Shown: piece after piece, positions 14,859-41,163 of the stretch
How positions within the stretch are numbered: the first letter of the stretch is position 1
Layout of the letters: every line of letters starts with the position of its first letter
DNA from: a virus
DNA: 64,000 nt
Virus record (IMG/VR): IMGVR_UViG_3300045988_175595
Coordinates: 101,597-165,596 of that record
Strand: one strand, 5' to 3'
Made by a program: the position numbers and the translations under genes
Notes under the pieces: generated by a model
The model's database searches: none
What the model was told of the DNA's origin: nothing
The model's input: the letters and a program-made list of their open reading frames with translations, nothing else

Positions 14859-15464
14859 TTATTTGTTTTTAAATTTTTCTACTATGTATAAACTGCTTAA
14901 AGCTGTTTGTGTTCCTATAATATTGTTTTCTATAAAATCAGCTACATCTTCTAACTTTACTTTAATAGCTGACTCTATTATTTCTTTTCCTACTGTATTT
15001 TCATTTGTAAAACTACCAGTAACTTTTGCTAGATAAATACTAACTGCTTCATCCGATATTCCGATGGAATCATATGCTGCACCTAATATTTTTTCTGTAC
15101 TTAAAACTTCTAATCCTGTTTCTTCTGCTAATTCTCTTATAATAGCTTCTTCTATATTTTCTCCTTCTTCTATTAATCCTGCTGGAAAACCATATTCAAA
15201 GCTATTAATAGCAGGTCTATATTCTCTGATAAATAGTAATTCATTACTATCTTCAAAATATGGGGCTATAACTATTCCATTAGATTTAACAGAATAATCT
15301 TGATAACTAGCTCTTAATGCTGCCATATCTTCTGGTTTATTTCTTGTAACCATATAATAACTATTAGTATCTTTACTTGTGCTATCTTTTCTATATTTGA
15401 TTTCACAAAATCTAAGATAGTCATTATTGGAATCCAAGATTTTTACTTCTTCTAATCTTGGCAT
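14859..15464 (-). CDS. NUDIX hydrolase (ADP-ribose / NAD-related pyrophosphatase candidate)
   Basis: Nudix box GFPAGLIEEGENIEEAIIRELAEETGL. Confidence 0.7.
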   Translation of the reverse strand: MPRLEEVKILDSNNDYLRFCEIKYRKDSTSKDTNSYYMVTRNKPEDMAALRASYQDYSVKSNGIVIAPYFEDSNELLFIREYRPAINSFEYGFPAGLIEEGENIEEAIIRELAEETGLEVLSTEKILGAAYDSIGISDEAVSIYLAKVTGSFTNENTVGKEIIESAIKVKLEDVADFIENNIIGTQTALSSLYIVEKFKNK

Positions 15465-15709
15465 TATTCATCATCCTCCTTTACTTTTAAATATATATAT
15501 AAAGTATAAAATTATTAACTATTTATTTGTTTTGTTTTTATTTATATATTTTTAGTACACTATGACAAAAATATATTTCTTATTTATTTAAATTTTTCTT
15601 TTTATATCAACCATCAACTAACTTGTTAATAGCTTATATAAAAAGAAAAAAGAGGCAATATAAGCCTCTTAAATCTTATATTATATTAATATAGATTGTC
15701 AATTTATTT

Positions 15710-16189
15710 TTAGCCTACAGAAACTGATCCTTCTTCAACTTCTTTTACATTTATATCACTATTTAAAATGTTAAAAGTTGCATTAAATCCATCTACTAGA
15801 ATTTGTCCTTCTACAGATATAGGTTTTTCATCTAATTTTTCAGTATTATGTCTTATTATATTATAAATATGACTATACTTTTCTCCTAATGTTCTTGCTA
15901 CTTCAGCAATACTTCTATATCTATGTATTTCTGGATTTTTTAAATCAATTATTGGAACACCTCTTTTTATTCTGCGTTCTTTTGTTGTAATCGATTTCTT
16001 TTTACCTGTTTCAATTTCTTTTGGTTTTACTTTATTATGTATTTTGTTTTCCTTCTTTTTTAAATCTTTCCTTAATCTTTTTTGTTTTAATTTTTTAGAA
16101 TTCTTCTTTGTCATTTTTTGTTCATACCTCCATAATAAAAAATAAGCTATTAATAGCTTATAATAAGTATTTTTATTTAAAAATGACAA
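15710..16189 (-). CDS. Lys-rich putative DNA-binding protein (HTH-like C-terminal region)
   Basis: A KKxK-rich N-terminal region and GVPIIDLKNPEIHRYRSIAEVARTLGEKYSHIYNII resembling a NUMOD/sigma-region-4-like HTH. The true start may be an internal Met. Confidence 0.35.
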   Translation of the reverse strand: MSFLNKNTYYKLLIAYFLLWRYEQKMTKKNSKKLKQKRLRKDLKKKENKIHNKVKPKEIETGKKKSITTKERRIKRGVPIIDLKNPEIHRYRSIAEVARTLGEKYSHIYNIIRHNTEKLDEKPISVEGQILVDGFNATFNILNSDINVKEVEEGSVSVG

Positions 16190-16207
16190 TCTATATTATT
16201 TTCAACT

Positions 16208-16642
16208 TTATAAATCTTTTACTAATATAGTTTCATTTAATGTTTCTATTTTTTCTATTCCAGCATTAATAATTAATCTACTACATATAGTACAAGGTTT
16301 AGGATTTAATATTTCTTCATTTTTTTCTTTATCAAATCCATATAAATATAATGTACTTCCTATCATATCTTTTCTTGATGCAGATATTATTGCATTCATT
16401 TCTGCATGAACAGAAGCACAAAGTTCATATTTTTCGCCACTTGGTACATTAAGTCTTTGTCTTTCACATTGACCTATATCATTACAATTTATTCTACCTC
16501 GAGGCGAACCTGTATAACCTGTTGCTATTATTTCATCATTTTTTACAATAATAGCTCCATAATTTCTTCTTAAACATGTTCCTCTTTGAGAAACTGCTTT
16601 TGCTATATTTAAATAATATTCTTTTTTATCGATTCTACTCAT
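16208..16642 (-). CDS. dCMP deaminase (cytidine/deoxycytidylate deaminase zinc-binding family)
   Basis: HAEMNAI and PCTICSRLI zinc-ligand motifs. Confidence 0.75.
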   Translation of the reverse strand: MSRIDKKEYYLNIAKAVSQRGTCLRRNYGAIIVKNDEIIATGYTGSPRGRINCNDIGQCERQRLNVPSGEKYELCASVHAEMNAIISASRKDMIGSTLYLYGFDKEKNEEILNPKPCTICSRLIINAGIEKIETLNETILVKDL

Positions 16643-16664
16643 TAGTAGTAAGCTCCTTATATTA

Positions 16665-16696
16665 TTGATTTAAGACATTAAGTTGCCTCAAGTTTA
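16665..16696. promoter_or_regulatory. Copy c of the dyad promoter/operator-like element, 20-60 nt upstream of the dCMP deaminase start
   Basis: Plus-strand sequence ttgatttaagacattaagttgcctcaagttta. The minus strand reads CTTGAGG-N19-AATAATAT-aaggag-ATG. Confidence 0.45.
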
Positions 16697-16867
16697 CTTA
16701 TCTATAACAAGTTCTAATAATCCATAACCTGTATGGTCTAAAACTACTAAGCTTTTTTCGTCTTTTATAGTGATATCACAAGAACCAAATTTTTTTAATG
16801 TTTCTGCTACTTCTTCTGCTGTTTTATCACTATAATCAACAGTTTTCATCAATGTAACATTATTCAT
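16694..16867 (-). CDS. Small hypothetical protein (57 aa)
   Basis: Hand-translated MNNVTLMKTVDYSDKTAEEVAETLKKFGSCDITIKDEKSLVVLDHTGYGLLELVIDK, flanked by two copies of the dyad element. Confidence 0.35.
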   Translation of the reverse strand: MNNVTLMKTVDYSDKTAEEVAETLKKFGSCDITIKDEKSLVVLDHTGYGLLELVIDK

Positions 16868-16885
16868 ATTTATTCCTTTTTATTA

Positions 16886-16917
16886 TTGACTTAAAGAATT
16901 AAGTCCCCTCAAGTTTA
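16886..16917. promoter_or_regulatory. Copy d of the dyad promoter/operator-like element
   Basis: Plus-strand sequence ttgacttaaagaattaagtcccctcaagttta, with the internal inverted repeat GACTTAA..TTAAGTC. Confidence 0.45.
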
Positions 16918-16975
16918 AATATATAAAAACAAAAAAGAATAGCTATAATTAATAGCTATCCTTTAATAATTTATT

Positions 16976-17932
16976 TTATTGTTTAACGGCTACACCATGT
17001 CCATCTATAGTATAACCATATATAGTAATATCATGTGCCATTTGGCCATTACTATATAGTAAATAATCTTTCCCTTGATCTTTTATCCAACCTGTAGCCA
17101 TACTTCCATCAGGGTTAAAATAATACCATTCATTATCTATTTTTAACCAACCTATTTGCATAGCTCCATCTGAATTCATATAATACCATTTACCTTCAGT
17201 AAGTATCCATCCAGTTTTCATTGAACCATCATTTTCATCACCTAAATAGTACCAATTTGCACCATTTGAATATTGCCATCCATAAAGCATATATCCTTCA
17301 GTATCGAAAAGATACCATTCATTATTAATTTTTTCCCAATCATTAGAAGTATAACTTCCATCTGAATGTTTATACCACCAACCTCTACTATCTAAAATCC
17401 ATTCTCCTTTTTTAGATTCTAGAGTTTGTCCAGTTAATCCTTCTACTATTTCTGTAGAGATAACTTCTTCTCCTATGCTATTATATAAATAGCTATCAGA
17501 AGAATCTACAAAACATATTTCGATTAACATAGCAGTAGATTTTGGTCTTTTTACCATAGCTAAATTTGACCCATCTTTAATTCCTCTATTTCTAAATCCT
17601 AAAGAAACTAAGTTATTCAATACAGCTCTTGCTTCTGGAATTTCTTTTGCTCCATAAGTAAATACTTCTGAACCAATTCCTCCACCTGCATTAGCATGTA
17701 AACTAACACACATATCTACATTATTTATATCTGCTTTATTATATCTTTGATATAAACTATCATTAACGCTTGAAGCATTTTGAGGTCTTAATCTAATAAC
17801 TTCATGACCTAATTGTATTAATTTTTCGATTATTAATTCTCCAACTGAATTAATAATTGTTTCTTCTGCTATATTTCCAACAGCACCTCTATCTGGACCT
17901 ACTCCATGACCTAAATCAATAGCAAATTTCAT
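16976..17932 (-). CDS. Endolysin: N-acetylmuramoyl-L-alanine amidase (Amidase_3) with C-terminal clostridial/choline-type cell-wall-binding repeats
   Basis: An N-terminal MKFAIDLGHGVGPDRGAVGN amidase_3 signature, followed by 5-6 repeats of the GW(I/L)xxxGxWYY(F/M)xxDGxM type. Confidence 0.8.
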   Translation of the reverse strand: MKFAIDLGHGVGPDRGAVGNIAEETIINSVGELIIEKLIQLGHEVIRLRPQNASSVNDSLYQRYNKADINNVDMCVSLHANAGGGIGSEVFTYGAKEIPEARAVLNNLVSLGFRNRGIKDGSNLAMVKRPKSTAMLIEICFVDSSDSYLYNSIGEEVISTEIVEGLTGQTLESKKGEWILDSRGWWYKHSDGSYTSNDWEKINNEWYLFDTEGYMLYGWQYSNGANWYYLGDENDGSMKTGWILTEGKWYYMNSDGAMQIGWLKIDNEWYYFNPDGSMATGWIKDQGKDYLLYSNGQMAHDITIYGYTIDGHGVAVKQ

Positions 17933-17997
17933 ATAAAATTTTCATCTCCTATTATTAGTAATAATTTTACTTAATATTATTACTAATAATATTATTA

Positions 17998-18519
17998 TTA
18001 TATACTTTTATCTAAATTAGCTATTAATTTAACAGCTTTTTTAGCAGAAGTATATACTTGTTTTATATTAACTTTTTTTATTGCTTCTTCTGGTGGATAT
18101 AATTCACTATATTCAGGAATAGGAAAACAAATACAATAGTCTCCTATTTCTCCTGTATTTAAATCTTTTCCCATTCCTTTTGCTGGAGATATTCCTTCAT
18201 CTTTTATCATAAGCTCATCAAATGTTTCTATTCTTTCATCATAAAATATTGCATCAGTTGACACAATAATATCGTTAGGGAATAAGCTTTTAACTGCTTC
18301 CCATTTTTCTTTTACATTTAATGCAGTAATAGTATCATTTAATGAACCTATAGATACTATATTTTTTAAATCTATTTCACTTAATAAAGTACCTAAAAGG
18401 GGACCAAAACTGTCACCTAATCTTTTTTCTGTACCTATATTAAATAATATTATTCTTTTATTTGTGTCTTTAATTTCTTTTTTTATTTGTTTTAAAAAAT
18501 TTTCCTCTGTTAAATACAT
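17998..18519 (-). CDS. YyaC-like (DUF1256) sporulation-protease-family protein
   Basis: The motif IGTEKRLGDSFGPLLGTLL resembles the YyaC GTDRSTGDALGPLVG motif. Confidence 0.45.
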   Translation of the reverse strand: MYLTEENFLKQIKKEIKDTNKRIILFNIGTEKRLGDSFGPLLGTLLSEIDLKNIVSIGSLNDTITALNVKEKWEAVKSLFPNDIIVSTDAIFYDERIETFDELMIKDEGISPAKGMGKDLNTGEIGDYCICFPIPEYSELYPPEEAIKKVNIKQVYTSAKKAVKLIANLDKSI

Positions 18520-18596
18520 CTTTCTTTTTCCTTTCTAATATAATATTTTATTATGTCTTACTTTATTTGTTCTTAATATTTTATTAGAAGGTAATT

Positions 18597-18953: not shown

Positions 18954-18959
18954 AAGCTA

Positions 18960-19445: not shown

Positions 19446-19460
19446 ATAATTACCTTCTTT

Positions 19461-23769: not shown

Positions 23770-24801
23770 TTAAAATAAATCAATAAATAATACTCTTATT
23801 CCAACTATTTCATCTTGTTCATTTTTATATGTTAAATAAGTTGAAATATCTATACCTCCAGTAGAACTAACCACTCCTCCTGGAATAATACCTGCTTCAT
23901 CTTGTTGTGATATTACAGTATCACAACATTTTCCATAATATTTTTCTCTTTTATTATTATATATATCTCCAAAATTATTTTCTGGTATATAATCTTCTGG
24001 AAAAATATTATCATTTCTAAAATAAGATAATTTAGAAATTACAATCATATCATTATCTGTTATAATTTCTATGTCTCCACCTTCTCTTTTTCCTTCATAA
24101 AATATACTAAATATTTCATTATTTTCTTTAAATTCTTCATGTCTAAAGACTAATTCAGTATTTTTATTGTCTTCTTTTTTTATTATTTCTGCAGTCCATA
24201 AACCATGTTTTACATCTAGTATATTATAATTATTTTTTTTATTTATCATATGTTCTAAAGGTGAAGCAATTATTATCTCTTCATCAATATTTATTGTACC
24301 TAATGGAATTGTTTCTATTTCTGTATCATCTATTGCTTTTAACAATTCTCCAAAAGGAGTATCTTTTAACTTTATAAAAATATTTTCATCGCTAAAAGGA
24401 TCTAGTTCTAATCTGAATACCTTTCTATCAAACAATGAATATATAATTTCTGCAATTATTCTTATTTCTGAAATTAATAAGTATACTTCTTCATCAATTT
24501 CAGAATAAATAATATCTTCATTAGATAATGAAGTTATATTTGCTTCTTCTTTTGTGTCTTTATTAATAGCTGATATTAAATATTCTGAATCTTCATCATC
24601 AAAATCAAATTCAAATGATATTATATATTTAGATTCTTTTGAATTATTTGATTTATCTGCTTCTAATAATTGATTTAAAATTCCTATATACTCAGAAGAA
24701 AAAATCTCATCTAAAGAATGAGATTCAAGAATTTCTTGAATTATTCTATCTTGAGTGTATTTTTTTAAAATATTAATAACATTCATTTTTTTATCCCCCA
24801 T
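23770..24801 (-). CDS. Acidic hypothetical protein
   Basis: 343 aa, D/E-rich. Confidence 0.4.
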   Translation of the reverse strand: MGDKKMNVINILKKYTQDRIIQEILESHSLDEIFSSEYIGILNQLLEADKSNNSKESKYIISFEFDFDDEDSEYLISAINKDTKEEANITSLSNEDIIYSEIDEEVYLLISEIRIIAEIIYSLFDRKVFRLELDPFSDENIFIKLKDTPFGELLKAIDDTEIETIPLGTINIDEEIIIASPLEHMINKKNNYNILDVKHGLWTAEIIKKEDNKNTELVFRHEEFKENNEIFSIFYEGKREGGDIEIITDNDMIVISKLSYFRNDNIFPEDYIPENNFGDIYNNKREKYYGKCCDTVISQQDEAGIIPGGVVSSTGGIDISTYLTYKNEQDEIVGIRVLFIDLF

Positions 24802-25456: not shown

Positions 25457-26110
25457 TTATATTATATTAATATCGTTCATAATTGTAAGCATAATAAATG
25501 CCGTACAATTTTCTCTATCTTTTGTATTTTCATTTCTTATAATATAATCAGCTTGTTCTTTTAATTCTCTTATTTCTCTTTTGTCATTTAACATGCGTTG
25601 GCAAAAAGAATAAACCTTTTTATCTGTTATATCATTTTTTTCTCTTTCTATCATTCTAAAGAGTCTTGTTTTTGCTGTAGTTGAAATATAAATGATTCTA
25701 ATTATATCATTTATATCATAACCTTCATTTCTTACATATTTTTTAAAATTTGATATGCCATTTGAATCTAAGGTTATTAAATATACATTATCTGATTCTA
25801 AGTCAATAGAATCTTTTAATGTACCATATCTTTTAATATTACCTTCATCATCTTTAGTTTCAGTATATTCGATAAATTTATCTTCTCTTATATATTTATC
25901 GAAATCTTCTTTTGTTTTAAAATAATAATCTTTACCATAGAATTCATTAGATCTTTGTTGTCTATCTGTATATGTAACAACTTTATTTATTTTTATAGTA
26001 GAAGGAATACTATATTGTTTTGATAAACTTGTTAATGTACAGTTAATTAAATCTGTTTTTCCTACTGAGCTTGGCCCACTAAAAATATAAATCTTACACA
26101 TGCTATACAC
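25457..26110 (-). CDS. Guanylate-kinase-like / dNMP kinase P-loop protein
   Basis: IYIFSGPSSVGKT P-loop, with the downstream TTR..R..E..G.DY.F pattern. Confidence 0.55.
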   Translation of the reverse strand: MYSMCKIYIFSGPSSVGKTDLINCTLTSLSKQYSIPSTIKINKVVTYTDRQQRSNEFYGKDYYFKTKEDFDKYIREDKFIEYTETKDDEGNIKRYGTLKDSIDLESDNVYLITLDSNGISNFKKYVRNEGYDINDIIRIIYISTTAKTRLFRMIEREKNDITDKKVYSFCQRMLNDKREIRELKEQADYIIRNENTKDRENCTAFIMLTIMNDINII

Positions 26111-27663: not shown

Positions 27664-28431
27664 TTAAACATCAGTAGTTCCTTCTATTTGTTCAGAATTT
27701 GAATTACCTTTTAAGCTTTCAATATAAGCTTTTCTATCTTGAACTCTCATATTGTTCTTAATTCTGTTTAATTTAAAATCTCTAGAATTTTCATAGATAA
27801 CTTTTGAGCCAATTGCTTGTTCTTCAGCTTCTTCCATGCTTTCTTTTACTTTAGACATTAATTTATCAGTGCCATCTATATCTTTAAGTTTATCCATGCT
27901 GTCATATACTTTTTGAACCTCAAGATTCATTTTTAGCTTTTGAATACTCATTTTTTTCTCTTGTTTTAATTGATTTATTCTGTTTTGGATCTCAGTATTA
28001 AGTTCTTCTGCTTCCTCCATTTTAGGAGTGTATATTCTTATTTGTTCTTGATAAGCATCCATTTGTTCTTTTAAAAGACAAACTTCATCAGCTAATAACA
28101 TAGCATTTTCTTCGTCTCCGTCTTCTACTAGTCTTCTACATTCTTTATCTAATCTTTCGTATTCTGCTTGTGCTTTTTTTAAATTATTTTCTGCCATTTT
28201 TACTATTCCAGTAAATTTCTTATAACTATCATTAATTATCTTATAGTTATCTTTTGCCTTCTCGATTTGTTTATCATAAATTGCTTCTGCTGCTTTTGGA
28301 TTCTTAGCTGCATTTCCAATTCCTAAACCAATCATACTTCCTGCTAACGATAATAATTTTCCTCCATTTCCTGTAACTACTACTAAAAATAATGCTACTC
28401 CTGCTCCAATTTCTAAACAAGTTAATAACAT
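27664..28431 (-). CDS. Membrane-anchored coiled-coil protein (PspA/IM30-like)
   Basis: An N-terminal transmembrane segment and a long heptad-rich helical region. Confidence 0.3.
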   Translation of the reverse strand: MLLTCLEIGAGVALFLVVVTGNGGKLLSLAGSMIGLGIGNAAKNPKAAEAIYDKQIEKAKDNYKIINDSYKKFTGIVKMAENNLKKAQAEYERLDKECRRLVEDGDEENAMLLADEVCLLKEQMDAYQEQIRIYTPKMEEAEELNTEIQNRINQLKQEKKMSIQKLKMNLEVQKVYDSMDKLKDIDGTDKLMSKVKESMEEAEEQAIGSKVIYENSRDFKLNRIKNNMRVQDRKAYIESLKGNSNSEQIEGTTDV

Positions 28432-28478: not shown

Positions 28479-29009
28479 TTATTGTCTTTTTTCTTCTTCT
28501 CTATCTTTCATTTCTTCTTCAAAAATTTCAGTTATATCTTTAAAATTCTTATTTAATAACTTCATTTTTTCTAAGTCTTCAAGAGCTTCTTCTTTTGTTA
28601 TTCTTTCTTCATCTACAAAAACTGAATACAATACTGCTACTCCACATTTATATCCTTGTTCAAATGTGCTTTTATTATAAAGTCTCATTCTTTTTACATC
28701 TTTAGGAACTTCATCTTTATCTTTGTCTAAAATACCTATACATACAGCTGTTAAACTATCAGGTTCTAATTCTGTTTTACCTGCATCTCTAACTGTATAT
28801 TTTGGATATTTATTAGCATATTCTTCTAGTTTATTTTGTGGACAATCTAATACTATTTTAGTTTGATTACTTTCCATATGTTTGCTAATTAATTCTTTAT
28901 CTTCACAATTATAAAGATAAGATTCAATAGCATGTCCCACTTGACCTGCTACTTTACCTGAAGACATTTTTAAATCTCCATTAACAAGTATATACATTGC
29001 TAAATTCAT
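28479..29009 (-). CDS. Peptidyl-tRNA hydrolase, PTH2 family
   Basis: YILVNGDLKMSSGKVAGQVGHA and RDAGKTELEPDSLTAV match the conserved PTH2 motifs. Confidence 0.65.
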   Translation of the reverse strand: MNLAMYILVNGDLKMSSGKVAGQVGHAIESYLYNCEDKELISKHMESNQTKIVLDCPQNKLEEYANKYPKYTVRDAGKTELEPDSLTAVCIGILDKDKDEVPKDVKRMRLYNKSTFEQGYKCGVAVLYSVFVDEERITKEEALEDLEKMKLLNKNFKDITEIFEEEMKDREEEKRQ

Positions 29010-29293: not shown

Positions 29294-29905
29294 TTATACA
29301 TATAGATTGTTTTCTTTTATATAATTAAATGTAGAATTAGCTATTAAATCTTCACATTGATCTTCATAGAATTGATCAATTCTATTTCTTACTTTAGTAG
29401 AAGATATTTCATTAGCTATTATATTAGTAACTATAATCTTATCTTTATATTTACTTAACAGCTTAGAATTATCTACTATTTCTACTAAATTATCATCATT
29501 TCTATTGAAAACCATTACATTATAGCTCTGTAAAAGCTCTTCTCCATTATACCAGTTTTCTATATCAGCTAAAACATCTAAACCTATTACTGGTATAATT
29601 TCTAAGCATAACACTCTACTTAAAAAGTCTAACAATCCTTTTAATGAAAAAGTTTCAAGATTAAAAAGACATGAAATATTAAGAACTTCAACTCCAGGAA
29701 TATTTAGATTTTTAATCATATTTATTCTGTGCTGAATGTCTACAAGTTCTGGTTTAATAGCTCTATAAAAGTTAGGCATTGGAGCTACAAATACTTTTTT
29801 AGCATCATAATCTTTTAATAAGCTATTAATAAGTAATTTATGACCTAAAGTTATAGGATTAAAACTACCATCATATAAATATATTGTTTTTCCCATTTTA
29901 ATCAC
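29294..29905 (-). CDS. Nicotinamide/nicotinate mononucleotide adenylyltransferase (NMNAT/NadD-like)
   Basis: YDGSFNPITLGHKLL (the (H/T)xGH motif) and ISSTKVR (the ISST motif). Confidence 0.7.
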   Translation of the reverse strand: MIKMGKTIYLYDGSFNPITLGHKLLINSLLKDYDAKKVFVAPMPNFYRAIKPELVDIQHRINMIKNLNIPGVEVLNISCLFNLETFSLKGLLDFLSRVLCLEIIPVIGLDVLADIENWYNGEELLQSYNVMVFNRNDDNLVEIVDNSKLLSKYKDKIIVTNIIANEISSTKVRNRIDQFYEDQCEDLIANSTFNYIKENNLYV

Positions 29906-30474: not shown

Positions 30475-31152
30475 CTATGATTTATTATCTTTTGAATTAA
30501 CTTCTTTAGTATATTTATTAATAGCTTCTTTCCATTCTTCATTTTTTGGAATAAATATATCTCCATCATGTCTTATAAAACCGCATAAGACATGTACTAA
30601 TTCTCCAAATCTTAAATCAGGTACTTTTTTCCATAATTCATAAAATTTTGTTATTAAATCGAATTTTTCTGAATGTACATTGTCTTTACCAAAAATATCT
30701 TCTAATGAAAGAGTAATAATTTCACCTTTATCTATTGCTGTATCAAATTCTTCCATTCTTCGTTCTAGTTCTTTTTTTGCTTCTATTAAATTATCTTCAG
30801 TATAGCCATTAAAAGTTATCTGCCACAAAATAATAGCTAATACTTCTTTTTCTGATAATACTTCGAATGATTCAGGTCTTATTTCTTTACCTAACCATTC
30901 TCCCCAGGATATATAATCCAGTCCCCAAATTTGACCAGTATTATCTATTCCTTCACAGCAATAACCATTAAAACCATTTTCGTCTGCATAAGTAATAATA
31001 TCTATTCCATCGTATTCTATTATTTCTTGTTTTTCTTTTAGCTCTTCTATTGCGCTTCTATAACTTTCTTCATCTGATTTTTCATCATATTTTAGAATTG
31101 CTTCTATAATAGAATCAGTTGTATATTTAGAAAGTAAATTCTTTAATGTCAT
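30475..31152 (-). CDS. Hypothetical protein
   Basis: 225-aa ORF. Confidence 0.4.
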   Translation of the reverse strand: MTLKNLLSKYTTDSIIEAILKYDEKSDEESYRSAIEELKEKQEIIEYDGIDIITYADENGFNGYCCEGIDNTGQIWGLDYISWGEWLGKEIRPESFEVLSEKEVLAIILWQITFNGYTEDNLIEAKKELERRMEEFDTAIDKGEIITLSLEDIFGKDNVHSEKFDLITKFYELWKKVPDLRFGELVHVLCGFIRHDGDIFIPKNEEWKEAINKYTKEVNSKDNKS

Positions 31153-31223: not shown

Positions 31224-32756
31224 TTATTCTTCTACAGAGTTAGTTGTTTCTGTTTCTTGAATAATTGTAGGATCATTATTAGATGTAGCAATTTTACCTC
31301 CAATAACTCCTCCTATAAGACTCTTAAGATCTAAACCAATAGTATCTTTTAATCCTTCAGAAATCTTATTTCCAGTTTTCATTATACCACCAATTAATTC
31401 AGCTTCATTGCCTGTACCATACATTGTTATCTTATCAACTTTGCTTAATGGTTCTGCAACATTCTTGTATATTTCAGGTAATTTGTTTACAACAAGCTCA
31501 ATTACAGCTGCTTGTTGCATTTTATTCATTGCCTCTGCTTTCTTTTCAAGACCTTCAGCTTCAGCGAATAAGTTTGCTTTTGTTGCTTCTGCAGTAGCTT
31601 TACCAGCAAGTTCAATACCTTTAGCTTCATTTTCTTTAGCTATTAATTGAGCAGCAGCTTTTGTTTTAATAGCTTCTGCTTCCTGTTCCATTTCATATTT
31701 AGTTGCTTCTGCCTTTTTAGCTCTTTCTACTTTATCTGCTTCTGCATTTTTTTCTCTTGTATAAAGCATTGCATCTGCTTCTTGTTGCATTTTATATTTT
31801 TCTGCATCTGCTTGTTTCTTTATAGCAGCATCTAATTCTTGTTCTTTAACATTTGCTTCTTTTTTCTTAAGCTCAATTTCCTTATCTTGCTTAGCTATAT
31901 CAGCTTCTGTTTTAGCAATTTCTATTACTTTTCTTTGAGCTTCTTTTTGAATTTCATATGCAGCATCAGCTTCTGCTTGAGCTGAATCAGATTGTTTCTT
32001 TAATTCTGCTTTCTTAATAGCTAATTCATTATTCTTTTCTGCTATAGCTTGTTCTGAAGCTACTCTTGCATCATTTGCAGCTTTTGATGCTTCAGATTGT
32101 ACTATTGCAACTTCTTTATCAGCATTTGCTTTTGCTATACTAGCATTTTTCTTAATTTGAGACATATTATCTTGACCTAAAGCAGTAATTAAATTATTTT
32201 CATCTTCTAGTTTTTGGATATTGCATGATTCTATCCAAATACCTAAAGCATTCATATCTTTTTGAGCTTTTGATTGAACTTCATCTCCAAATGCTTTTCT
32301 ATCGTTACATAGATCTTTTAAATTCTGTGTACCGATAATTTCTCTCATATTACCTTGTAAAGAATCTGTTAATGCATCTCTAATTGAATTACTTCCCATA
32401 TTTAAGAAGTTTTTCATAGCAGCTTTTACCATTTCTTTTGTTATGCCTTTTTCTTCATTAATATCTGAATCAGTTAAAACTCTTACTTTTGCAACAGCGT
32501 CTATATCCACACCAATAAAATCCTTGGTTGGAATAAAACCATTAGTTTTAATATCAATAGATATTTGTTTTAATAGTAATTCATCCTTTCTTTCAAAGAA
32601 TGGAACTCGGAATCCAGCTCTTCCTACTAAAACTCTAGGCTCTTTTTTAATACCTGAAATTATAAAAGCTTTATTTGTTGGTGCTTTTACATAACCAAAA
32701 ATTAATAATACTGCAGCTAAAATAATAACTACTCCTCCAATTCCTAATAATAACAT
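31224..32756 (-). CDS. Flotillin / SPFH (band-7) family protein with long Ala/Glu-rich coiled coil
   Basis: An N-terminal transmembrane segment, an SPFH-like region (ISGIKKEPRVLVGRAGFRVPFFE) and a long A/E/K coiled coil. Confidence 0.6.
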   Translation of the reverse strand: MLLLGIGGVVIILAAVLLIFGYVKAPTNKAFIISGIKKEPRVLVGRAGFRVPFFERKDELLLKQISIDIKTNGFIPTKDFIGVDIDAVAKVRVLTDSDINEEKGITKEMVKAAMKNFLNMGSNSIRDALTDSLQGNMREIIGTQNLKDLCNDRKAFGDEVQSKAQKDMNALGIWIESCNIQKLEDENNLITALGQDNMSQIKKNASIAKANADKEVAIVQSEASKAANDARVASEQAIAEKNNELAIKKAELKKQSDSAQAEADAAYEIQKEAQRKVIEIAKTEADIAKQDKEIELKKKEANVKEQELDAAIKKQADAEKYKMQQEADAMLYTREKNAEADKVERAKKAEATKYEMEQEAEAIKTKAAAQLIAKENEAKGIELAGKATAEATKANLFAEAEGLEKKAEAMNKMQQAAVIELVVNKLPEIYKNVAEPLSKVDKITMYGTGNEAELIGGIMKTGNKISEGLKDTIGLDLKSLIGGVIGGKIATSNNDPTIIQETETTNSVEE

Positions 32757-35529: not shown

Positions 35530-35618
35530 ACTTATCAGTCCTTTATATATTAAATATAATATTAGCTTTTAATAGCTAATACTTTAGTTAATATATAATA
35601 TAAAAAGAGGCATATTAA

Positions 35619-36206
35619 TTATGCCTCTTTAACAAATTCCATAATTCTATTTAATTCTTTTTGTGTATCTACAATAACTAAACTTCTACCTGCATGTAAT
35701 TCATTACCATACCATTCTCCAGCCCAATTTATTGGTCTTATATAATATTTATTATCTGTTGTTTTTCCAAATAATAATTGAATATTATTATTGTTTGCTT
35801 GATATTCTTTTATTGATTCTGCTTTTTCCATAATTAATACATCTGTTAATAAATTATAAGCTGTTAATAAACCAGCTCTATCATCAAGTAGTATATTATA
35901 ATATACTTTTCTGCCATTTGGCATTCCTTCTACTCCTTCATTAACATAATCACATGGAATATTATTATTAATAATATAGCTCCATATTTCTTTGTATCTT
36001 TCTGGTTTACTAGCAGTAAAACAAATAAAAGTTGCTTTATCTTTCCATTGTCTTAATAGATTAATTACATCATTATAATTTCTATCTTTTTTATGAAAAT
36101 CATAAATAGTATCATCAAAATCGTAAGCTATAATAAGCTTACCATATTTTTTATACTCTTTATATAATCTATCAAGACAATTATTATAATTTAGATAATA
36201 ATCCAT
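35619..36206 (-). CDS. HAD-like hydrolase domain protein
   Basis: IIAYDFDDTIYDF DxDxT motif. Confidence 0.4.
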   Translation of the reverse strand: MDYYLNYNNCLDRLYKEYKKYGKLIIAYDFDDTIYDFHKKDRNYNDVINLLRQWKDKATFICFTASKPERYKEIWSYIINNNIPCDYVNEGVEGMPNGRKVYYNILLDDRAGLLTAYNLLTDVLIMEKAESIKEYQANNNNIQLLFGKTTDNKYYIRPINWAGEWYGNELHAGRSLVIVDTQKELNRIMEFVKEA

Positions 36207-36958
36207 TATTGATTAACTGATAATGGAATACAATAAGGCATTGGTAATAACTTATGCATATTTTCTTTATGCATTTTATCTATCTTATTCTTAACAGCTT
36301 GATCTTCACATACTCCTTCTCTGATATATTTATCAAGAACTTCGTATGAGAATCCTAACTTATCTTCATCTGTTTGTCCACAAAGACCATCTGTTGGTAC
36401 TTTGTTTATAAACTTATCTGGCAATCCTAATTCCTTGCCTAAAGCCTTAACTTCTTGAACTGTAAAATGAGATAATGGAGAAAAGTCTCCAGCTCCATCT
36501 CCGAACTTTGTTGCATATCCAACCCAGTCTTCTGAAAGATTACAAGTATTGGCAACTCTGCCGCCAACTATTCCGCTAATTCCATAAAGTGTTGACATTC
36601 TTATTCTTGCTGGTGTATTTATTGTAGCTACATCATTTATTTTTAAGCCTGTATGGCTAATTGTTTCAAATAAAGATTTAGTTGTATCACCTATATTTAC
36701 AGTATAAGCAGTAATTCCTAGATGCTTAACAAGATCTTTTGCATAATCAATGTCAGATTGTTCTCCATCTGGCATTAATACTCCTATTACTCTATCTTTT
36801 CCTAATGCTTTAACACATGCTGCCGCTACTGTTGTGCTATCTTTTCCTCCTGATAATCCTACAACAGCTTTTGTTTCATCTGATCCATTTCTTCTAAAAT
36901 ATACTTTTATCCATTCTATAAGATTATTTAATTGTTCTTTTGCATCAAATTTATACAT
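36206..36958 (-). CDS. nadE: NH3-dependent NAD+ synthetase NadE
   Basis: PP-loop VVGLSGGKDSTTVAAAC, 250 aa. Confidence 0.8.
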   Translation of the reverse strand: MYKFDAKEQLNNLIEWIKVYFRRNGSDETKAVVGLSGGKDSTTVAAACVKALGKDRVIGVLMPDGEQSDIDYAKDLVKHLGITAYTVNIGDTTKSLFETISHTGLKINDVATINTPARIRMSTLYGISGIVGGRVANTCNLSEDWVGYATKFGDGAGDFSPLSHFTVQEVKALGKELGLPDKFINKVPTDGLCGQTDEDKLGFSYEVLDKYIREGVCEDQAVKNKIDKMHKENMHKLLPMPYCIPLSVNQ

Positions 36959-36982
36959 AATAAATACCTCACTTTCTGTTTT

Positions 36983-37243
36983 TTATAATGGAAATTCTTT
37001 TGTTTTTTCCATTATAATTCCACTTAATGTTCCTAAGACATATAAAATTTGTTCTTTTTCTGTTAAATCTTTAAAAAAACTATCTTCTTCAGATAATTCT
37101 TCTTTAATATTTTCTTTTACAAACTCATTAAAAGATAATCTTTTGCTTAATTCATCTAATACTATATTATAAGCATTTTCTATTCCTTGTATTATTTCTA
37201 ATTGTTTTTTTGTAAAATCTAAATTTTCAATATTTTCTAACAT
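36983..37243 (-). CDS. Hypothetical protein
   Basis: 86-aa ORF. Confidence 0.35.
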   Translation of the reverse strand: MLENIENLDFTKKQLEIIQGIENAYNIVLDELSKRLSFNEFVKENIKEELSEEDSFFKDLTEKEQILYVLGTLSGIIMEKTKEFPL

Positions 37244-37254
37244 TATAATTTCTC

Positions 37255-37509
37255 CTAATATTTTTTAAATGGACTTCTATTCATCCATTCATGTAATTTA
37301 CTATCTTCATATATTTTTTCATAGAATAGATATATAGAATAAATTGAAAATCCTATAATAGTTCCAGGTAAGAAAATAATACAAGATATTATCTTACCAT
37401 TTGTCATGCATTCTATTCCATAATAACTTATATCAGTAATTACATCTATCGTCATTACAATACAAGCACTAATGTAAAAACATAGTGCTAACATTAAAAA
37501 AATTAACAA
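37255..37509 (-). CDS. Small membrane protein
   Basis: 84-aa hydrophobic ORF. Confidence 0.35.
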   Translation of the reverse strand: MLIFLMLALCFYISACIVMTIDVITDISYYGIECMTNGKIISCIIFLPGTIIGFSIYSIYLFYEKIYEDSKLHEWMNRSPFKKY

Positions 37510-38979
37510 TTAAAAATTGCCTCCATTTAATCTTTCTCTTATTGTTGATAAACTTTCTTCTTTTAATAGCTTACCATCTTTAAATACTGGTTTAAGCAAA
37601 TTATGTTGATCTTCATATGCTTTATTCCAACTATAACAATCAGCATATGTTATTTTGTCATTATCTAAATAAACAACACAACAGCCTTTTTGAGATTTTT
37701 TGAAACTGCCTTCTTTAGGATTTTTAAAAATTAGAGTTGGCTTATCATCCAACTCACAATAAGTTGCTTTGATACACATACTAAATGTATCTCTAGTAAA
37801 TGGTTTTAATACGCCATTTTCTTCTATTGCCTGCATTGAAAATGACCCTACTCCTAGAGCAACATTATTACAAGCAAATCCATTAGCTATTAAAATTTCA
37901 TAGATTTCTTTGCAGCGTTGTACAGTTATGCTATCTCCATATATAGCTTTAACATGCGGATCTAAAATTTTATAACCTTTACTATTTACTGTTCCTCCAA
38001 AGATATCCCATAATTTAAAGACTGTCTTTGTTACAACTTCAACGCAATCTCCGCTATCTCCGCGGACTAAAAAACAACCATTATGATTTAATATTTCTTC
38101 TTTTAATTGAGGTAGAACATTTTCTACAATGTTCCAGTAATCATAGCTATCTAACACAGCTGAAAAGCTTGTATTAGGATATATTTCTGTTAAAAGTCTT
38201 CTTAATAAAGTTATTTCATCGCCATCAGCAGAAAAGTTTGAACACATTACTGAATGTTCTGTTGATACTGCTCCTAATAATACTGGTTCTTTAGTACAGT
38301 CACAGTTGTAATTATCTTCTAGATAAATTATTGCTGGAACCGTTGCACTATTTAAGAATGATAGTGCCCAACCAGCTGAGCTCTTAATAGCTGACTGTAG
38401 GCATTCTTGCCCACGAAAACTAAAATCTCCTAAAGCTTTAGATCTAGGTATATCATCATCTACAGAAATATCATAATACTTGTTTACAATATCTCTATAT
38501 GTGCTTCCTACAGTTGCTGAGATCATTGGATGCCATATTTCAGCCGATATAAGTGATTCTAATGCTTGAGGTAACCATGCAAAATCTGGATGTGTATTTG
38601 TAATACAAAACATAGGAACATGTATTGGCACTTTAGTTCCTTCTGGAAGCGATAAAACTTCAATAGGTAAGTAACCTAATTCATGAAGTTTTCTAATTTT
38701 TTCGCTTGAATAAGCTCCTTTTCCAAGACTTGCAGATAAAACTCTATCATATTCATTTACTACTTCTTCTAAATCTTTCTTAAAGAAATATTCAGTGAAA
38801 TAGTCAATGAGATATGTTTTAATAAACCCTTGCAAACCAAACATGACTACTTTTGGCCACATATCTACTCTACTCATTCTTGGAGTAAAATAACTAGCAC
38901 TTTTTGTTATATTTTTTGGTAGCATATCGCTATGACATGCTTTATAAAAATCTATTAATAACATTGGATTTGTTTTCAT
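37510..38979 (-). CDS. Nicotinamide phosphoribosyltransferase family protein (NAMPT/NadV-like, or NARP1 Namat-like)
   Basis: 489 aa with the N-terminal DFYKxxH pattern (LIDFYKACHSD) typical of the NAMPT/PBEF family. Confidence 0.6.
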   Translation of the reverse strand: MKTNPMLLIDFYKACHSDMLPKNITKSASYFTPRMSRVDMWPKVVMFGLQGFIKTYLIDYFTEYFFKKDLEEVVNEYDRVLSASLGKGAYSSEKIRKLHELGYLPIEVLSLPEGTKVPIHVPMFCITNTHPDFAWLPQALESLISAEIWHPMISATVGSTYRDIVNKYYDISVDDDIPRSKALGDFSFRGQECLQSAIKSSAGWALSFLNSATVPAIIYLEDNYNCDCTKEPVLLGAVSTEHSVMCSNFSADGDEITLLRRLLTEIYPNTSFSAVLDSYDYWNIVENVLPQLKEEILNHNGCFLVRGDSGDCVEVVTKTVFKLWDIFGGTVNSKGYKILDPHVKAIYGDSITVQRCKEIYEILIANGFACNNVALGVGSFSMQAIEENGVLKPFTRDTFSMCIKATYCELDDKPTLIFKNPKEGSFKKSQKGCCVVYLDNDKITYADCYSWNKAYEDQHNLLKPVFKDGKLLKEESLSTIRERLNGGNF

Positions 38980-39012
38980 TATAAATTCCTCCTTTAATAC
39001 AAAAATAATGAT

Positions 39013-39294
39013 TTATAGTTCTTTTTCTAATACATTATTTTCATTTAAGATATTATTTTTTATATCTTCAACTATTTTAATATGACCTTTAATAGCTTGA
39101 ACATTAGTATCATATTGTTGTATAACTATCCATTCTCCATTTTTAATATTTTTATTGCTTATAGCAGTTTCATAAGGATATAATGAATATTTAATAAAAC
39201 AAGTACTAACTATAAAATCTTTTATTTTTGTATTTTCAATTTTCATTTCTACATATTCTTTTACTTTTTTGTTTCTATTAAATAAATTAAACAT
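39013..39294 (-). CDS. Hypothetical protein
   Basis: 93-aa ORF. Confidence 0.35.
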   Translation of the reverse strand: MFNLFNRNKKVKEYVEMKIENTKIKDFIVSTCFIKYSLYPYETAISNKNIKNGEWIVIQQYDTNVQAIKGHIKIVEDIKNNILNENNVLEKEL

Positions 39295-39299
39295 AATAT

Positions 39300-39710
39300 T
39301 TACTTAATAATTACAGATCCACCCGCATCAATTTCTCCTTCATGCTTTCCTTGGATCTGTACTGATCCTCCACAATCAATACTTCCATTAACATCTCCAG
39401 ATATTTGTACTGATCCTCCACAATCAATAGTGCCTCCAACATTTCCTACAACTTCAACGCTGCCATTACAATTAATTTCTTGTACATCACCTTCAACTTT
39501 AATATTAACAATAGAATTTGAATTGAAAGTCATGTCTTTATCTTCTAATTCTTTTCCATTGACAAAAACTTTGCCATTTACAATGCTAATGTTACCATTA
39601 GCCTGTATTTGTTTTCCATTTATAGTAATTGTTCCATTATTACAAGAAATAGAATTACAATTACTATTAGTTATATTAAATTTACTAAAGAAATCTTTCA
39701 TTATATTCAT
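39300..39710 (-). CDS. Bactofilin-like (polymer-forming cytoskeletal, DUF583) protein
   Basis: Repeated G(S/N)V(E/Q)(V/I)xG(D/N)V beta-helix repeats. Confidence 0.5.
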   Translation of the reverse strand: MNIMKDFFSKFNITNSNCNSISCNNGTITINGKQIQANGNISIVNGKVFVNGKELEDKDMTFNSNSIVNIKVEGDVQEINCNGSVEVVGNVGGTIDCGGSVQISGDVNGSIDCGGSVQIQGKHEGEIDAGGSVIIK

Positions 39711-39717
39711 TCCTTTC

Positions 39718-40530
39718 TTATAATGTAATATCAGTTATTTTACTATGCTGATCATGTCTTAAACTGTTAGTTGTATATATGTGATCAACATAATCAGTTT
39801 TAAGTAAATCACCAGCATGTATATTGTCTTCACAATGAGAACAATAAAAAATAACTGATTTTGCTCCCAATTCTTTAAGTTTTTTTGCAGCAAATAATGT
39901 AGTATAACCTTTAACGCATAGATCATCTACAATAAGTATATTTTTATCTTTTACAATATAATCACCTATTATATCATAATCTGTAATTCTGCCATCATCA
40001 AGATCTCGGTGCTTATTACCCCAGAACTTTGGCAAATCTATTGCTGAAAGTACTTCTGAGTATTTTTTATACGCTCCTACATCTGGCATAAATATTGCAT
40101 CTATATTATTTGCTTTTTCTCTTTCATCATCTATAACTTGTCTAACATAATAAGTTAAATCAAGTTGAATTATTCTTTCTAATGCTCCAACTGATACATT
40201 AGAATGAGGATCTAATACAAATATTTTAGAGAAGTTTAAGCTATTAATAAGCTGTGCAAAATATTTGCATGTAAACATCTGATTATATGTTTCTCTATCC
40301 ATTCTTTCATATGGAATATAATACATATATAGATTAACTTGTGTATTGGTTGGATATTTTTCGTCTATATATTTCTTAAGAAATATTAGATTCATTATAT
40401 CTATTGAATTATCATAAAATAATTCAATTTTTATATCATTATCACAATTTACTGATAATGGTGCGATTTTTATTTCATTGTTTGGAAATAATGAATATTT
40501 TATTTCAACATAATTATTTACTTTAATCAT
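39718..40530 (-). CDS. Ribose-phosphate pyrophosphokinase (PRPP synthetase) family protein, possible ADP-ribose pyrophosphokinase (Adps-like)
   Basis: FVLDPHS (DLHA-like) region and DDLCVKGYTTLFAAKKLKELGAKSV resembling the PRPP-binding loop. Confidence 0.55.
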   Translation of the reverse strand: MIKVNNYVEIKYSLFPNNEIKIAPLSVNCDNDIKIELFYDNSIDIMNLIFLKKYIDEKYPTNTQVNLYMYYIPYERMDRETYNQMFTCKYFAQLINSLNFSKIFVLDPHSNVSVGALERIIQLDLTYYVRQVIDDEREKANNIDAIFMPDVGAYKKYSEVLSAIDLPKFWGNKHRDLDDGRITDYDIIGDYIVKDKNILIVDDLCVKGYTTLFAAKKLKELGAKSVIFYCSHCEDNIHAGDLLKTDYVDHIYTTNSLRHDQHSKITDITL

Positions 40531-40542
40531 TTTTTGTTCTCC

Positions 40543-41163
40543 TTATATTATTTCAATTTGATTACTTTTCATAGCTATTAAAGCAGCTTTATGATTTTCT
40601 GGTGTTGTTCCTGCGCAACACTCTGAATCTACTATTATTTTTGCTTCTGGTAAATTAGCTTTTAAACCAATAGCATTTGAAAGTACGCAAATATCTGTAC
40701 ATAATCCTACTATTTCAATTTGTACATCTTTTCCCATTTCTAATTGAGTTTGAATATTTTCGTCATCCATGAAAAAATCATCATTTTGTTTTGTCAAATA
40801 ATCACAGAATAGATCATCCCATAAATTAATACTTCCAAATGTAGGCTTTTCATACTTTGTAATTCTACCTTCTAAATTAGAAAATAAAGGTACATTTTGT
40901 AATTCTTTTTGAACCTCTTCTTGTAACTTCCAGCCATCTGTATCTTTTATACAGTGTTTTATTGGTAAATTTTTTCCTTCTTGAGTTTCAAGATAATTAT
41001 CAAAATGTGTATCTTGAGTAATAAGAATTTCAGCATTTTCATCTTCTTTGTATTTTTTAATTTTTTCAATAACTTTAGGTACAATAGCTTGTGCCTCTTT
41101 TGTTCCTAATGCTCCATTTATGAAGTCTTTTTGCATGTCTACTACTATTAAATATTTTTGCAT
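40543..41163 (-). CDS. Isochorismatase-family hydrolase, likely nicotinamidase PncA
   Basis: LIVVDMQKDF, a catalytic-Cys region GLCTDICV, and a length of 206 aa. Confidence 0.6.
   Translation of the reverse strand: MQKYLIVVDMQKDFINGALGTKEAQAIVPKVIEKIKKYKEDENAEILITQDTHFDNYLETQEGKNLPIKHCIKDTDGWKLQEEVQKELQNVPLFSNLEGRITKYEKPTFGSINLWDDLFCDYLTKQNDDFFMDDENIQTQLEMGKDVQIEIVGLCTDICVLSNAIGLKANLPEAKIIVDSECCAGTTPENHKAALIAMKSNQIEII

Follow-up and report, generated by a model that had tools for sequence, protein, structure and literature searches.

Depletion of nicotinamide adenine dinucleotide (NAD+) is among the commonest outcomes of bacterial antiphage immunity, and the most widespread phage answer known is the NAD+ reconstitution pathway NARP1, which consists of the two enzymes Adps and Namat and occurs in the phages SpβL1, Bas63, Fado and ICP1 (Osterman et al., 2024). 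Here we describe an operon on a stretch of 64,000 nucleotides of viral DNA (IMG/VR record IMGVR_UViG_3300045988_175595, positions 101,597 to 165,596; in the following the window), in which homologs of Adps and Namat are encoded together with a nicotinamidase (PncA) and an NAD+ synthetase (NadE). The operon spans positions 35619-41163 and may encode a nicotinic acid version of NARP1.

Six genes of the window concern NAD+, those for PncA, a homolog of phosphoribosyl pyrophosphate (PRPP) synthetase (Prs), a NAMPT-family protein, NadE, the adenylyltransferase NadD and a Nudix hydrolase. They had been named in an initial annotation of the sequence, and all six open reading frames (ORFs) were located on the minus strand at exactly the coordinates given there, with Pfam and NCBIfam in agreement with the assigned families. 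Each gene is present in a single copy and no PncB-like sequence was found within the window. The initial annotation had called the set dispersed, which holds for NadD and the Nudix gene, 6.3 kb and 20 kb away from the operon, and not for the other four genes, which form one compact operon with intergenic gaps of -1 to 33 bp. Read along the minus strand, the order is PncA, Adps, two small ORFs, Namat, two small ORFs, NadE and a HAD-like ORF:

40543..41163, minus strand: PncA-like nicotinamidase, 206 aa, first gene of the module (Pfam isochorismatase, match to 1ILW)
39718..40530, minus strand: Adps-type Prs homolog, 270 aa (Adps model and motifs, below Prs cut-offs)
39300..39710, minus strand: bactofilin-like/beta-solenoid ORF, 136 aa, phrog_3163, between Adps and Namat
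39013..39294, minus strand: operon ORF without assigned function, 93 aa, not conserved in relatives
37510..38979, minus strand: Ala-type Namat, 489 aa (Namat clade, remodelled nicotinamide pocket)
37255..37509, minus strand: hydrophobic ORF, 84 aa, not conserved in relatives
36983..37243, minus strand: small ORF, 86 aa, not conserved in relatives
36206..36958, minus strand: NH3-dependent NAD+ synthetase NadE, 250 aa (PF02540, TIGR00552)
35619..36206, minus strand: HAD-like small phosphatase with C-terminal extension, 195 aa, start overlapping the NadE stop
35604..35630, minus strand: terminator-like hairpin at the end of the operon (11-bp stem and T-run)
29294..29905, minus strand: NadD-type adenylyltransferase for nicotinic acid mononucleotide (NaMN) or nicotinamide mononucleotide (NMN), 203 aa (TIGR00482), outside the conserved module
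14859..15464, minus strand: Nudix hydrolase of the ADP-ribose pyrophosphatase type, 201 aa (Nudix box), unlinked, pathway membership unproven

The related phages considered in this study are 79 IMG/VR loci, in which ±8 kb around the Namat homolog were taken as the neighbourhood. The 136-aa ORF at 39300-39710 has no homolog in these 79 loci. Macro or RyR domains, which are known from NARP1 accessories, were not found in the small ORFs of the operon. An Rfam scan gave no NAD riboswitch, none of the 46 ORFs scanned in the window, which is a part of the genome, gave a Pfam match to PnuC or NadR, and a megablast search with the operon in the phage collection yielded no relative at the nucleotide level.

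The window has a G+C content of about 25% and nearly all large ORFs are on one strand. It carries 18-19 tRNA genes, RtcB, TnpB, an amidase endolysin with choline-binding repeats and a virion structural protein, and one of its proteins is found unchanged on a 245-kb contig. The source is a large phage of a Gram-positive gut bacterium. Among 50,697 phage records a match to NadE was obtained in 53, to PncA in 10 and to NadD in 6, and the presence of the whole NAD gene set in one phage is far from chance.

The enzymes of the operon

The Prs-like protein scores below the cut-offs of all curated NCBIfam Prs models (TIGR01251, 95 against 113). A hidden Markov model (HMM) was built from 71 Adps encoded next to classical Namat, and on this model the window protein reaches 231 bits, the Adps of ICP1 202 bits and the Prs of E. 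coli and B. subtilis 117 and 95 bits, respectively. In direct comparison it gives 160 bits to the Adps of Bacillus phage Hakuna versus 40 bits to the Prs of B. subtilis, and it matches about 1,500 phage genomes of the groups that carry classic NARP1. The Adps-type motifs RMDR, DPHS and K-x-R-D-x-x-x-G (extended hairpin) are present and the C-terminus is truncated, as 17 residues follow the TNS motif in the window protein and 44 in the Prs of E. coli. Loss of the C-terminal α11-α12 module is a signature of the Adps family versus Prs (PMC13586617). In addition, the Asp-Thr of the ribose-5-phosphate loop, which is invariant in Prs, is exchanged for Val-Lys (VDDLCVKGYT).

The residues Arg87, His121, Asp161, Lys185, Asp212 and Asp213 (numbering of ICP1 Adps) are all conserved in the motifs ERMDR, DPHS, PDVGA, NKHRD and VDDL; such catalytic and acceptor residues are common to Adps and Prs and show competence, not specificity. 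Asp216 of ICP1 is Val in the window and Ser in the Adps-clade homologs of Hakuna and a Staphylococcus phage. In a neighbour-joining tree the protein is found among phage Adps with a weak deep bootstrap of 14%, which is partly due to two partial Prs sequences, and the comparison of HMM scores was used in its place. The Namat homolog is encoded three genes downstream on the same strand. From its sequence the Prs-like protein is an Adps, predicted to form ADP-ribose pyrophosphate (ADPR-PP) and AMP from ADP-ribose (ADPR) and ATP.

The NAMPT-family protein (NF006629, 428 against a cut-off of 405) gives 400 bits to the crystallised Namat of SpβL1 (9W5X/9W5W; PMC12774641), whereas cellular NAMPTs reach 137-152 bits. 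Identity amounts to 45% with SpβL1 Namat and to 28% with the KVP40-like and RB43 Nampt, and in the neighbour-joining tree the protein is located on the Namat side of the long branch that divides Namat from Nampt. The initial annotation had proposed a NARP1-type pair, and since neither protein groups with ordinary Prs or with NadV this call stands.

The nicotinamide pocket, in contrast to the rest of the active site, differs from that of SpβL1 Namat. There, nicotinamide is contacted by Phe189, Arg192, Asp215, Ala242, Arg306, Asp13' and Tyr15', with Asp215 giving a hydrogen bond. Five of these seven residues are kept in the window protein, whereas Asp215 is replaced by Ala and Ala242 by Ser. Together, the pocket changes are G184 (H187 in SpβL1), N210 (G213), A212 (D215), G236 (S239) and S239 (A242). 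The catalytic H242 (EHS), R306, D308, F186, R189, D10 and Y12 are kept, as are the AMP/adenine contacts R37, S379, F380 and T395, and the contacts to ribose and phosphate are unchanged. The selectivity clamp comprises a stacking residue of the SCL (Arg40 of SpβL1) and the SCH motif GSXΦXΦXΦTRD with aromatic residues at its positions 3 and 7; of these, R37 (Arg40), G-S-F (390-392) and TRD are present in the window. The Namat-specific residues R40, S391, F392 and T398, which differ in Nampt, are retained, and at position 190 the window enzyme holds the Namat state, Ser, instead of the Nampt state. W204 was considered as a lost catalytic His; this was rejected, as the Trp sits at H207 and the catalytic His is conserved.

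An alignment of 82 Namat homologs linked to PncA and NadE (module-linked), 87 classical Namat and 4 Nampt sequences places the difference precisely. Only 10 of about 480 columns cleanly divide the two Namat types, and five of these ten surround the amide of nicotinamide: H187G, G213N/K, D215A, S239G and A242S, with 215 and 242 being direct nicotinamide contacts in the SpβL1 crystal structure. At all five columns classical Namat and Nampt share the same state, which was taken as ancestral. Asp215 is invariant in the 87 classical Namat and the 4 Nampt sequences, is kept in all 80 classical loci sampled, and is found in none of 162 module-linked sequences. Throughout the latter Ala242 is replaced by Ser, and position 215 is Ala in 78 of the 79 IMG/VR loci, Ser in the remaining one, and Ala in 80 of 80 bacterial loci. 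In the following these enzymes are called Ala-type Namat.

In human NAMPT the equivalent residue, Asp219, forms a hydrogen bond to nicotinamide and sets the substrate specificity; the exchange D219S "switches the substrate affinity", and with D219A the enzyme loses its activity. The human residues H191, G217 and A244, equivalent to 187, 213 and 242, are sites of inhibitor resistance in the same pocket. In the Ala-type enzymes a negative charge is lost and hydrogen bond donors are gained on the side of the pyridine amide, as would be expected if the pocket had changed from accepting the neutral amide to accepting the carboxylate of nicotinate. The sequence speaks against nicotinamide being the preferred base of the Ala-type enzyme, which is predicted to make nicotinic acid adenine dinucleotide (NaAD) and pyrophosphate from ADPR-PP and nicotinate.

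PncA, the first gene of the operon, encodes a protein of the isochorismatase fold (Pfam E 5e-21) with the P. horikoshii nicotinamidase 1ILW as closest solved relative. The triad D9, K106, C159 and the metal site D51-x-H53, H70 are present; all align to the P. horikoshii PncA except K106, which was placed by motif only. With 28 bits against a cut-off of 174 for the NCBIfam PncA equivalog it is a divergent member, predicted to convert nicotinamide and water to nicotinate and NH3. NadE is a single-domain enzyme of the NH3-dependent type (PF02540 E 1e-55; TIGR00552 183 bits against a cut-off of 64) with the SGGKDS P-loop at residue 36 and no glutaminase domain, and its relatives in the PDB are all NAD synthetases. 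It would catalyze the reaction of NaAD, ATP and NH3 to NAD+, AMP and pyrophosphate. NadE enzymes are known to act on deamidated substrates only, namely NaAD, or NaMN in the Francisella-type enzymes.

NadD scores 104.5 bits with TIGR00482, slightly under the cut-off of 112.45, its motifs T-L-G-H (T-x-G-H) and ISSTKVR (ISSTxxR) are intact and the closest PDB match is the NadD of S. aureus. The Nudix protein has a complete Nudix box (residues 96-118) and ADPR pyrophosphatases as top PDB matches. It was also considered as a remnant of the repressor NrtR, and this was rejected because the similarity to NrtR is limited to the Nudix box.

Related modules in phages and gut Clostridia

PncA, Adps and NadE are all encoded within 8 kb of Namat in 67 of the 79 IMG/VR loci, most of the others being truncated contigs, and in nearly all of them the Adps is about 31-40% identical to that of the window. 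As a control, 80 loci with classical Namat were sampled likewise from the same collection. Adps is present in 76 of these, whereas PncA or NadE is found near none. Counted by itself, NadE accompanies the Ala-type Namat in 73 of 79 phage and 71 of 80 bacterial loci, and a PncA homolog adjoins this Namat in most phage and bacterial loci; in the sampled sequences the association of the altered pocket with PncA and NadE is complete. PncA and NadE, which the initial annotation had regarded as additions to a standard NARP1, are therefore integral and syntenic members of a four-gene module, whose remodelled Namat pocket points to nicotinate/NaAD chemistry.

The gut phage Phass-1 has PncA, Adps, Namat (33% identical to that of the window) and NadE with overlapping genes, and MT835544 carries the same four genes in permuted order. 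The NadE homolog of Phass-1 (WIC39685.1; L008 6861-7784; OQ749652.1 96860-97783) is 46% identical to that of the window and annotated as 'hypothetical protein'. The phage is a member of the 'code 15' clade, and a suppressor tRNA is encoded in its genome. NadD and the Nudix gene had been counted as part of the same toolkit in the initial annotation. We considered them as conserved members of the pathway and rejected this, as neither is located within ±8 kb of any of the 79 related phage loci or in the Phass-1 neighbourhood. Phass-1 has no NadD homolog, and NadD was not found in the module operons of the 80 bacterial loci either.

For the bacteria one genome per species was scanned, which gave 170 matching stretches, and the best 80 were analysed. 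The Namats of these 80 are 69-78% identical to that of the window. The carriers are mainly Lachnospiraceae, Ruminococcus and other Clostridia, including the isolates Pseudoruminococcus massiliensis and Filifactor villosus, and PncA, Adps and NadE are all present in 69 of the 80 loci. The neighbourhoods are chromosomal and of housekeeping type, with DnaE, PfkA, ProC, asd and dapA (named from the N-terminal sequences of the ORFs, not by database search). The gene after the bacterial NadE encodes NrtR, a Nudix-type repressor with ADPR as effector, which is present in 64 of the 80 bacterial loci and in 0 of the 79 phage loci. Examples of this pncA-adps-namat(Ala-type)-nadE-nrtR operon, found at the loci L178-L257, are L244 6621-11213 and L184 6623-12315; L184 has the long form of NadE, which depends on glutamine. 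Under current annotation the bacterial adps and namat would be named Prs and nicotinate/nicotinamide phosphoribosyltransferase, respectively.

That the IMG/VR relatives are mis-called bacterial fragments was considered and rejected, since NrtR is missing from all 79 and 14 of them adjoin tRNA arrays. Phage and bacterial sequences interleave in the tree and at least nine transfers between phages and bacteria are deduced (trees were built by neighbour-joining from modest alignments). By sequence, the phage has captured its operon from the host and left the regulator behind. The set is also not quite independent of the host, as had been suggested initially, because nearly identical operons are resident on the chromosomes of the likely host group.

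The Adps of the window groups with the Adps of L098, an SPβ-like locus with classical NARP1, and not with most Adps linked to Ala-type Namat (window compared with L019 and L098). Adps genes thus seem to be exchanged between the module types. Such swapping of Adps lineages among modules with a coherent Namat clade fits an Adps step that is unchanged.

A proposed nicotinic acid route to NAD+ and its alternatives

We propose that the operon rebuilds NAD+ in four steps. PncA would deamidate nicotinamide to nicotinate, Adps would pyrophosphorylate ADPR with ATP to ADPR-PP, the Ala-type Namat would join nicotinate and ADPR-PP to NaAD, and NadE would amidate NaAD to NAD+, spending a further ATP and thereby making the route irreversible. 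The inputs, ADPR and nicotinamide, would come from the cleavage of NAD+. Most plausibly, the phage would use the route to sustain NAD+ levels while it infects the cell, also in the face of NAD+-depleting defences. We infer the substrates of the second and third step, the NaAD intermediate and the role in counter-defence from the sequences and their neighbourhoods, and assign this reading of 35619-41163 as a deamidated NARP1 a probability of about 0.5.

Several features of the module are explained by this route. A co-transcribed nicotinamidase would otherwise destroy the substrate of Namat, and it makes sense here because the altered Namat would use nicotinate. NadE is constantly present because its known substrates are deamidated and NaAD is the proposed product. 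The module has no adenylyltransferase because NaAD would be made directly. The canonical Preiss-Handler operon pncA-pncB-nadD-nadE under NrtR, e.g., of Clostridium acetobutylicum (Rodionov et al., 2008), likewise begins with PncA, ends with NadE, is accompanied by NrtR as in the bacterial copies of the module and follows the deamidated logic from nicotinate via NaAD to NAD+. In the module, however, PncB and NadD, which use PRPP and NaMN, are replaced by Adps and Ala-type Namat, predicted to proceed from ADPR-PP to NaAD. With this replacement the route is complete only if NaAD is made directly, and the module would recycle ADPR instead of consuming ribose-5-phosphate and ATP. Induction by ADPR, the effector of NrtR, fits a pathway that consumes ADPR, without proving one.

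A number of points weigh against this proposal. In human NAMPT the D219A exchange is inactive and not switched, so the other pocket changes must compensate. The substrate preference of the Ala-type enzyme is deduced from its residues. The clamp residue Tyr396, position 7 of the SCH motif, is replaced by Ala in the window and by Cys in most relatives, and an insertion of 9 aa (9-26 aa in relatives) follows position 396 in the helix of the selectivity clamp; clamp mutations reduce the use of ADPR-PP in SpβL1 Namat (PMC12774641). The Phe at the end of the insertion (P-F-TRD) might substitute for the lost clamp Tyr. A sub-clade (L089, L092-L096) has the Ala pocket, PncA and NadE with no clear Adps, and carries the Nampt-like Gly at the AMP/phosphate contacts 190, 362 and 391, so that the Ala pocket can probably work with PRPP. 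The NadD of the window is required only by a route that passes through NaMN. The NrtR-regulated homologs on chromosomes show that in bacteria the module serves housekeeping salvage, and counter-defence by the phage copy is extrapolated from NARP1. Finally, the Ala-type enzymes are essentially one clade (100% bootstrap when Phass-1 is excluded), which means few independent events. The divergent Phass-1 Namat joins this clade weakly, and the association still spans a deep divergence (33% identity).

One alternative is a PRPP-based analogue of the Preiss-Handler pathway. Here, the Ala-type enzyme would be a nicotinate phosphoribosyltransferase of NAMPT fold that replaces PncB, the Prs-like protein would provide PRPP, NadD of phage or host and then NadE would follow, and ADPR would not be a substrate. 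The lack of PncB and the presence of NadD in the window, the Adps-free loci with Nampt-like Gly, the PRPP activity retained by SpβL1 Namat (PMC12774641), the loss of Tyr396, the housekeeping context of the bacterial copies and the fact that Prs-nadV operons have long been interpreted in this way all speak for it. However, the Prs-like protein scores as an Adps, fails the Prs cut-offs and has lost the Asp-Thr from its ribose-5-phosphate loop. At the Namat-specific contacts, the window enzyme has R40, S190, S391, F392 and T398 and not the Nampt states, and NadD, which is included in the canonical operon, is missing from the module in the 79 phage loci, Phass-1 and the bacterial operons. We therefore consider this route unlikely, at about half the weight of the nicotinate/ADPR-PP route. 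Both ADPR-PP and PRPP may be usable, in which case NadD would mop up NaMN; that the window NadD adenylates NaMN formed when the Ala-type enzyme uses PRPP is speculative. Very unlikely, in our view, is an ordinary NARP1 accompanied by unrelated salvage genes, in which Namat acts on nicotinamide, the substitutions are neutral or tuning, and PncA and NadE feed the host Preiss-Handler pathway in parallel. It would suit the clade membership of Adps and Namat and the intact catalytic residues, and it matches the initial annotation, but Asp215 is present in 91 of 91 nicotinamide-type and 0 of 162 module-linked sequences, human D219A loses the activity with nicotinamide, the co-transcribed PncA would destroy the substrate of the enzyme and none of the 80 classical loci has PncA or NadE.

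With either chemistry, ADPR-PP or PRPP, the purpose may be another one than anti-immunity. The module would then be an auxiliary metabolic one, captured from the host, which raises the NAD+ supply of a jumbo phage or recycles ADPR from NAD-consuming enzymes of the phage. Near-identical chromosomal operons with NrtR in housekeeping neighbourhoods of Clostridia, the transfers between phages and bacteria and a genome that measures about 245 kb or more and holds many genes for metabolism and RNA repair are in line with this. On the other side, counter-defence has been shown experimentally for the homologous two-gene NARP1 in several phages, ADPR is scarce unless NAD+ is being cleaved, and NrtR is systematically lost (0 of 79 phage versus 64 of 80 bacterial loci). 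We regard a purely metabolic purpose as improbable, though slightly less so than the PRPP-based route.

Compared to NARP1, the nicotinate/ADPR-PP module shares a co-directional pair of an Adps-type Prs homolog, with Adps motifs and truncated C-terminus in both, and a Namat-clade NAMPT homolog, the catalytic core of Namat, most of the adenine clamp and the presumed ADPR-PP intermediate. It differs by having four core genes and not two, by the need for PncA upstream and NadE downstream, by D215A and four further pocket changes, by the loss of Tyr396 and the insertion behind it, by NaAD instead of NAD+ as predicted product of Namat, and by being common on bacterial chromosomes together with NrtR. 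The extended versions of NARP1 described to date are NARP1-AP of Vibrio phage Gary, which consists of Adps, the Macro phosphatase Adpp and Namat, and the RyDEP-extended NARP1 of mycobacteriophage DyoEdafos. As in these systems, accessory enzymes would widen the usable inputs and the operon of the window also ends with a phosphatase-like (HAD) gene. However, the accessories of NARP1-AP and RyDEP, a Macro phosphatase and a RyR glycosidase, act on the ADPR side (ADPR-1''P, cyclic ADPR) with the chemistry of Namat unchanged, whereas no Macro or RyR domains were found in the window operon, its accessories are on the pyridine side and its Namat is changed.

The window also recalls NARP2, i.e., the Nampt NadV and the Nmnat-Nudix fusion NatV of KVP40, as it has a NAMPT-family enzyme, an adenylyltransferase and a Nudix protein of the ADPR pyrophosphatase type, and Namat-type enzymes can also use PRPP. 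In contrast to NARP2, the NAMPT homolog belongs to the Namat clade and is only 28% identical to KVP40-type Nampt, the adenylyltransferase is of the NadD and not the NadM type and is not fused to the Nudix protein, and the relatives have neither of the two genes conserved. In the study of Osterman et al. (2024), NARP1 and NARP2 did not occur together in any phage. NARP3 consists of PnuC and NadR. The bacterial prs-nadV-nrtR operons of Shewanella and Acinetobacter are similar in that a chromosomal Prs paralog and a NAMPT-family protein are paired under NrtR; they have been described without PncA or NadE. The phage and Clostridial modules of this study have both genes, together with the Ala pocket. 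Some bacteria carry NARP1 (Osterman et al., 2024; Lan et al.), which is only an open question in Osterman et al. (2024), and a 2022 survey of viral NAD+ systems contained only NadV, NadM and NadR.

In the literature searched, including full text, nothing relevant turned up that combines NARP1 or Namat with a nicotinamidase, NadE or NaAD, and no description of the PncA-Adps-Namat-NadE module as a variant of NARP1 was found. Slightly more tentatively than for the operon itself, we propose that the Ala-type Namat is a nicotinate ADP-ribosyltransferase, an activity not described before, and that PncA, Adps, Ala-type Namat and NadE would constitute an unrecognised fourth route of NAD+ reconstitution, which bypasses PRPP, NaMN and NadD and serves in gut Clostridia for NrtR-controlled recycling of ADPR and in their large phages, without the regulator, for counter-defence. 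If this is true, the NAMPT/Namat family would have a new specificity, from nicotinate and ADPR-PP to NaAD, with D215A, A242S, G213N, H187G and S239G as predicted determinants, and NARP1 would prove open to rewiring at its pyridine side and not only at its ADPR side. Abundant Clostridia of the human and animal gut (Lachnospiraceae, Ruminococcus and others) would then have an ADPR-recycling NAD+ pathway, masked by the annotations 'ribose-phosphate pyrophosphokinase' and 'nicotinate/nicotinamide phosphoribosyltransferase'. This bears on predictions of niacin and NAD metabolism of the gut microbiome from genomes, on rules for the detection of anti-defence genes and on how phages could be designed to withstand the NAD+-depleting defences of Gram-positive hosts.

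Accessory and other genes

The last gene of the operon encodes the HAD-like protein, in which D29-x-D31-x-T33, K100 and D108-D109 are invariant across 26 homologs. The AlphaFold2 (AF2) model has a confidence score (pLDDT) of 89, and as the Foldseek matches to 2OBB, T4 PNK, Pnkp1 and lipin are weak (best E 2e-3), the assignment of the fold rests mainly on the invariant motif set. Homologs adjoin Namat in Hakuna, in Phass-1 and in 11 of the 80 classical NARP1 loci. The family has about 135 aa with invariant DxDxT, Lys and DD, includes gp64 of Hakuna and the ORFs L011 5443-5853 and L008 7784-8203, and is labelled 'phosphoheptose isomerase' in PHROGs. By analogy to the Macro-domain Adpp it may be a further NARP1-associated phosphatase; that it prepares a phosphorylated ADPR derivative is speculative.

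In the sub-clade without clear Adps, the loci L095 7397-14719 and L089 3769-11363 adjoin a PurA-like adenylosuccinate synthetase, and L095 also has an IMPDH/GMP reductase-like gene. These loci may represent a PRPP-using version of the module, and the PurA homolog prompts the question whether modified purines are involved.

Elsewhere in the window, an array of 18-19 tRNA genes (621-7165) is located directly upstream of the RNA ligase RtcB (7261-8382), and a PTH2 peptidyl-tRNA hydrolase (28479-29009) and a DUF2828/DUF7788 protein with vWA domain (1536-3092) are encoded as well. This set looks like tRNA supply and RNA repair. A TnpB of the IS605 OrfB/Cas12f-like type (10182-11465) is followed immediately downstream, on the same strand, by a RAGATH-18 RNA (69 bits), which is presumably the guide (ωRNA) region of TnpB. 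The 1669-aa ORF at 58866-63875 has no match in Pfam or PHROG, and the large ORFs at 57605-58798 and 23770-24801 are also orphans.

A PspA/IM30-like protein (27664-28431), a DUF6557 protein (30475-31152) and a flotillin/SPFH protein of 510 aa (31224-32756) are encoded close together and give this region a membrane-remodelling flavour that is unusual for a phage. Further enzymes are two AAA+ ATPases, a radical SAM enzyme, a calcineurin-like phosphoesterase and a guanylate kinase (13056-14837, 48304-49683, 49715-50800, 45593-46258 and 25457-26110).

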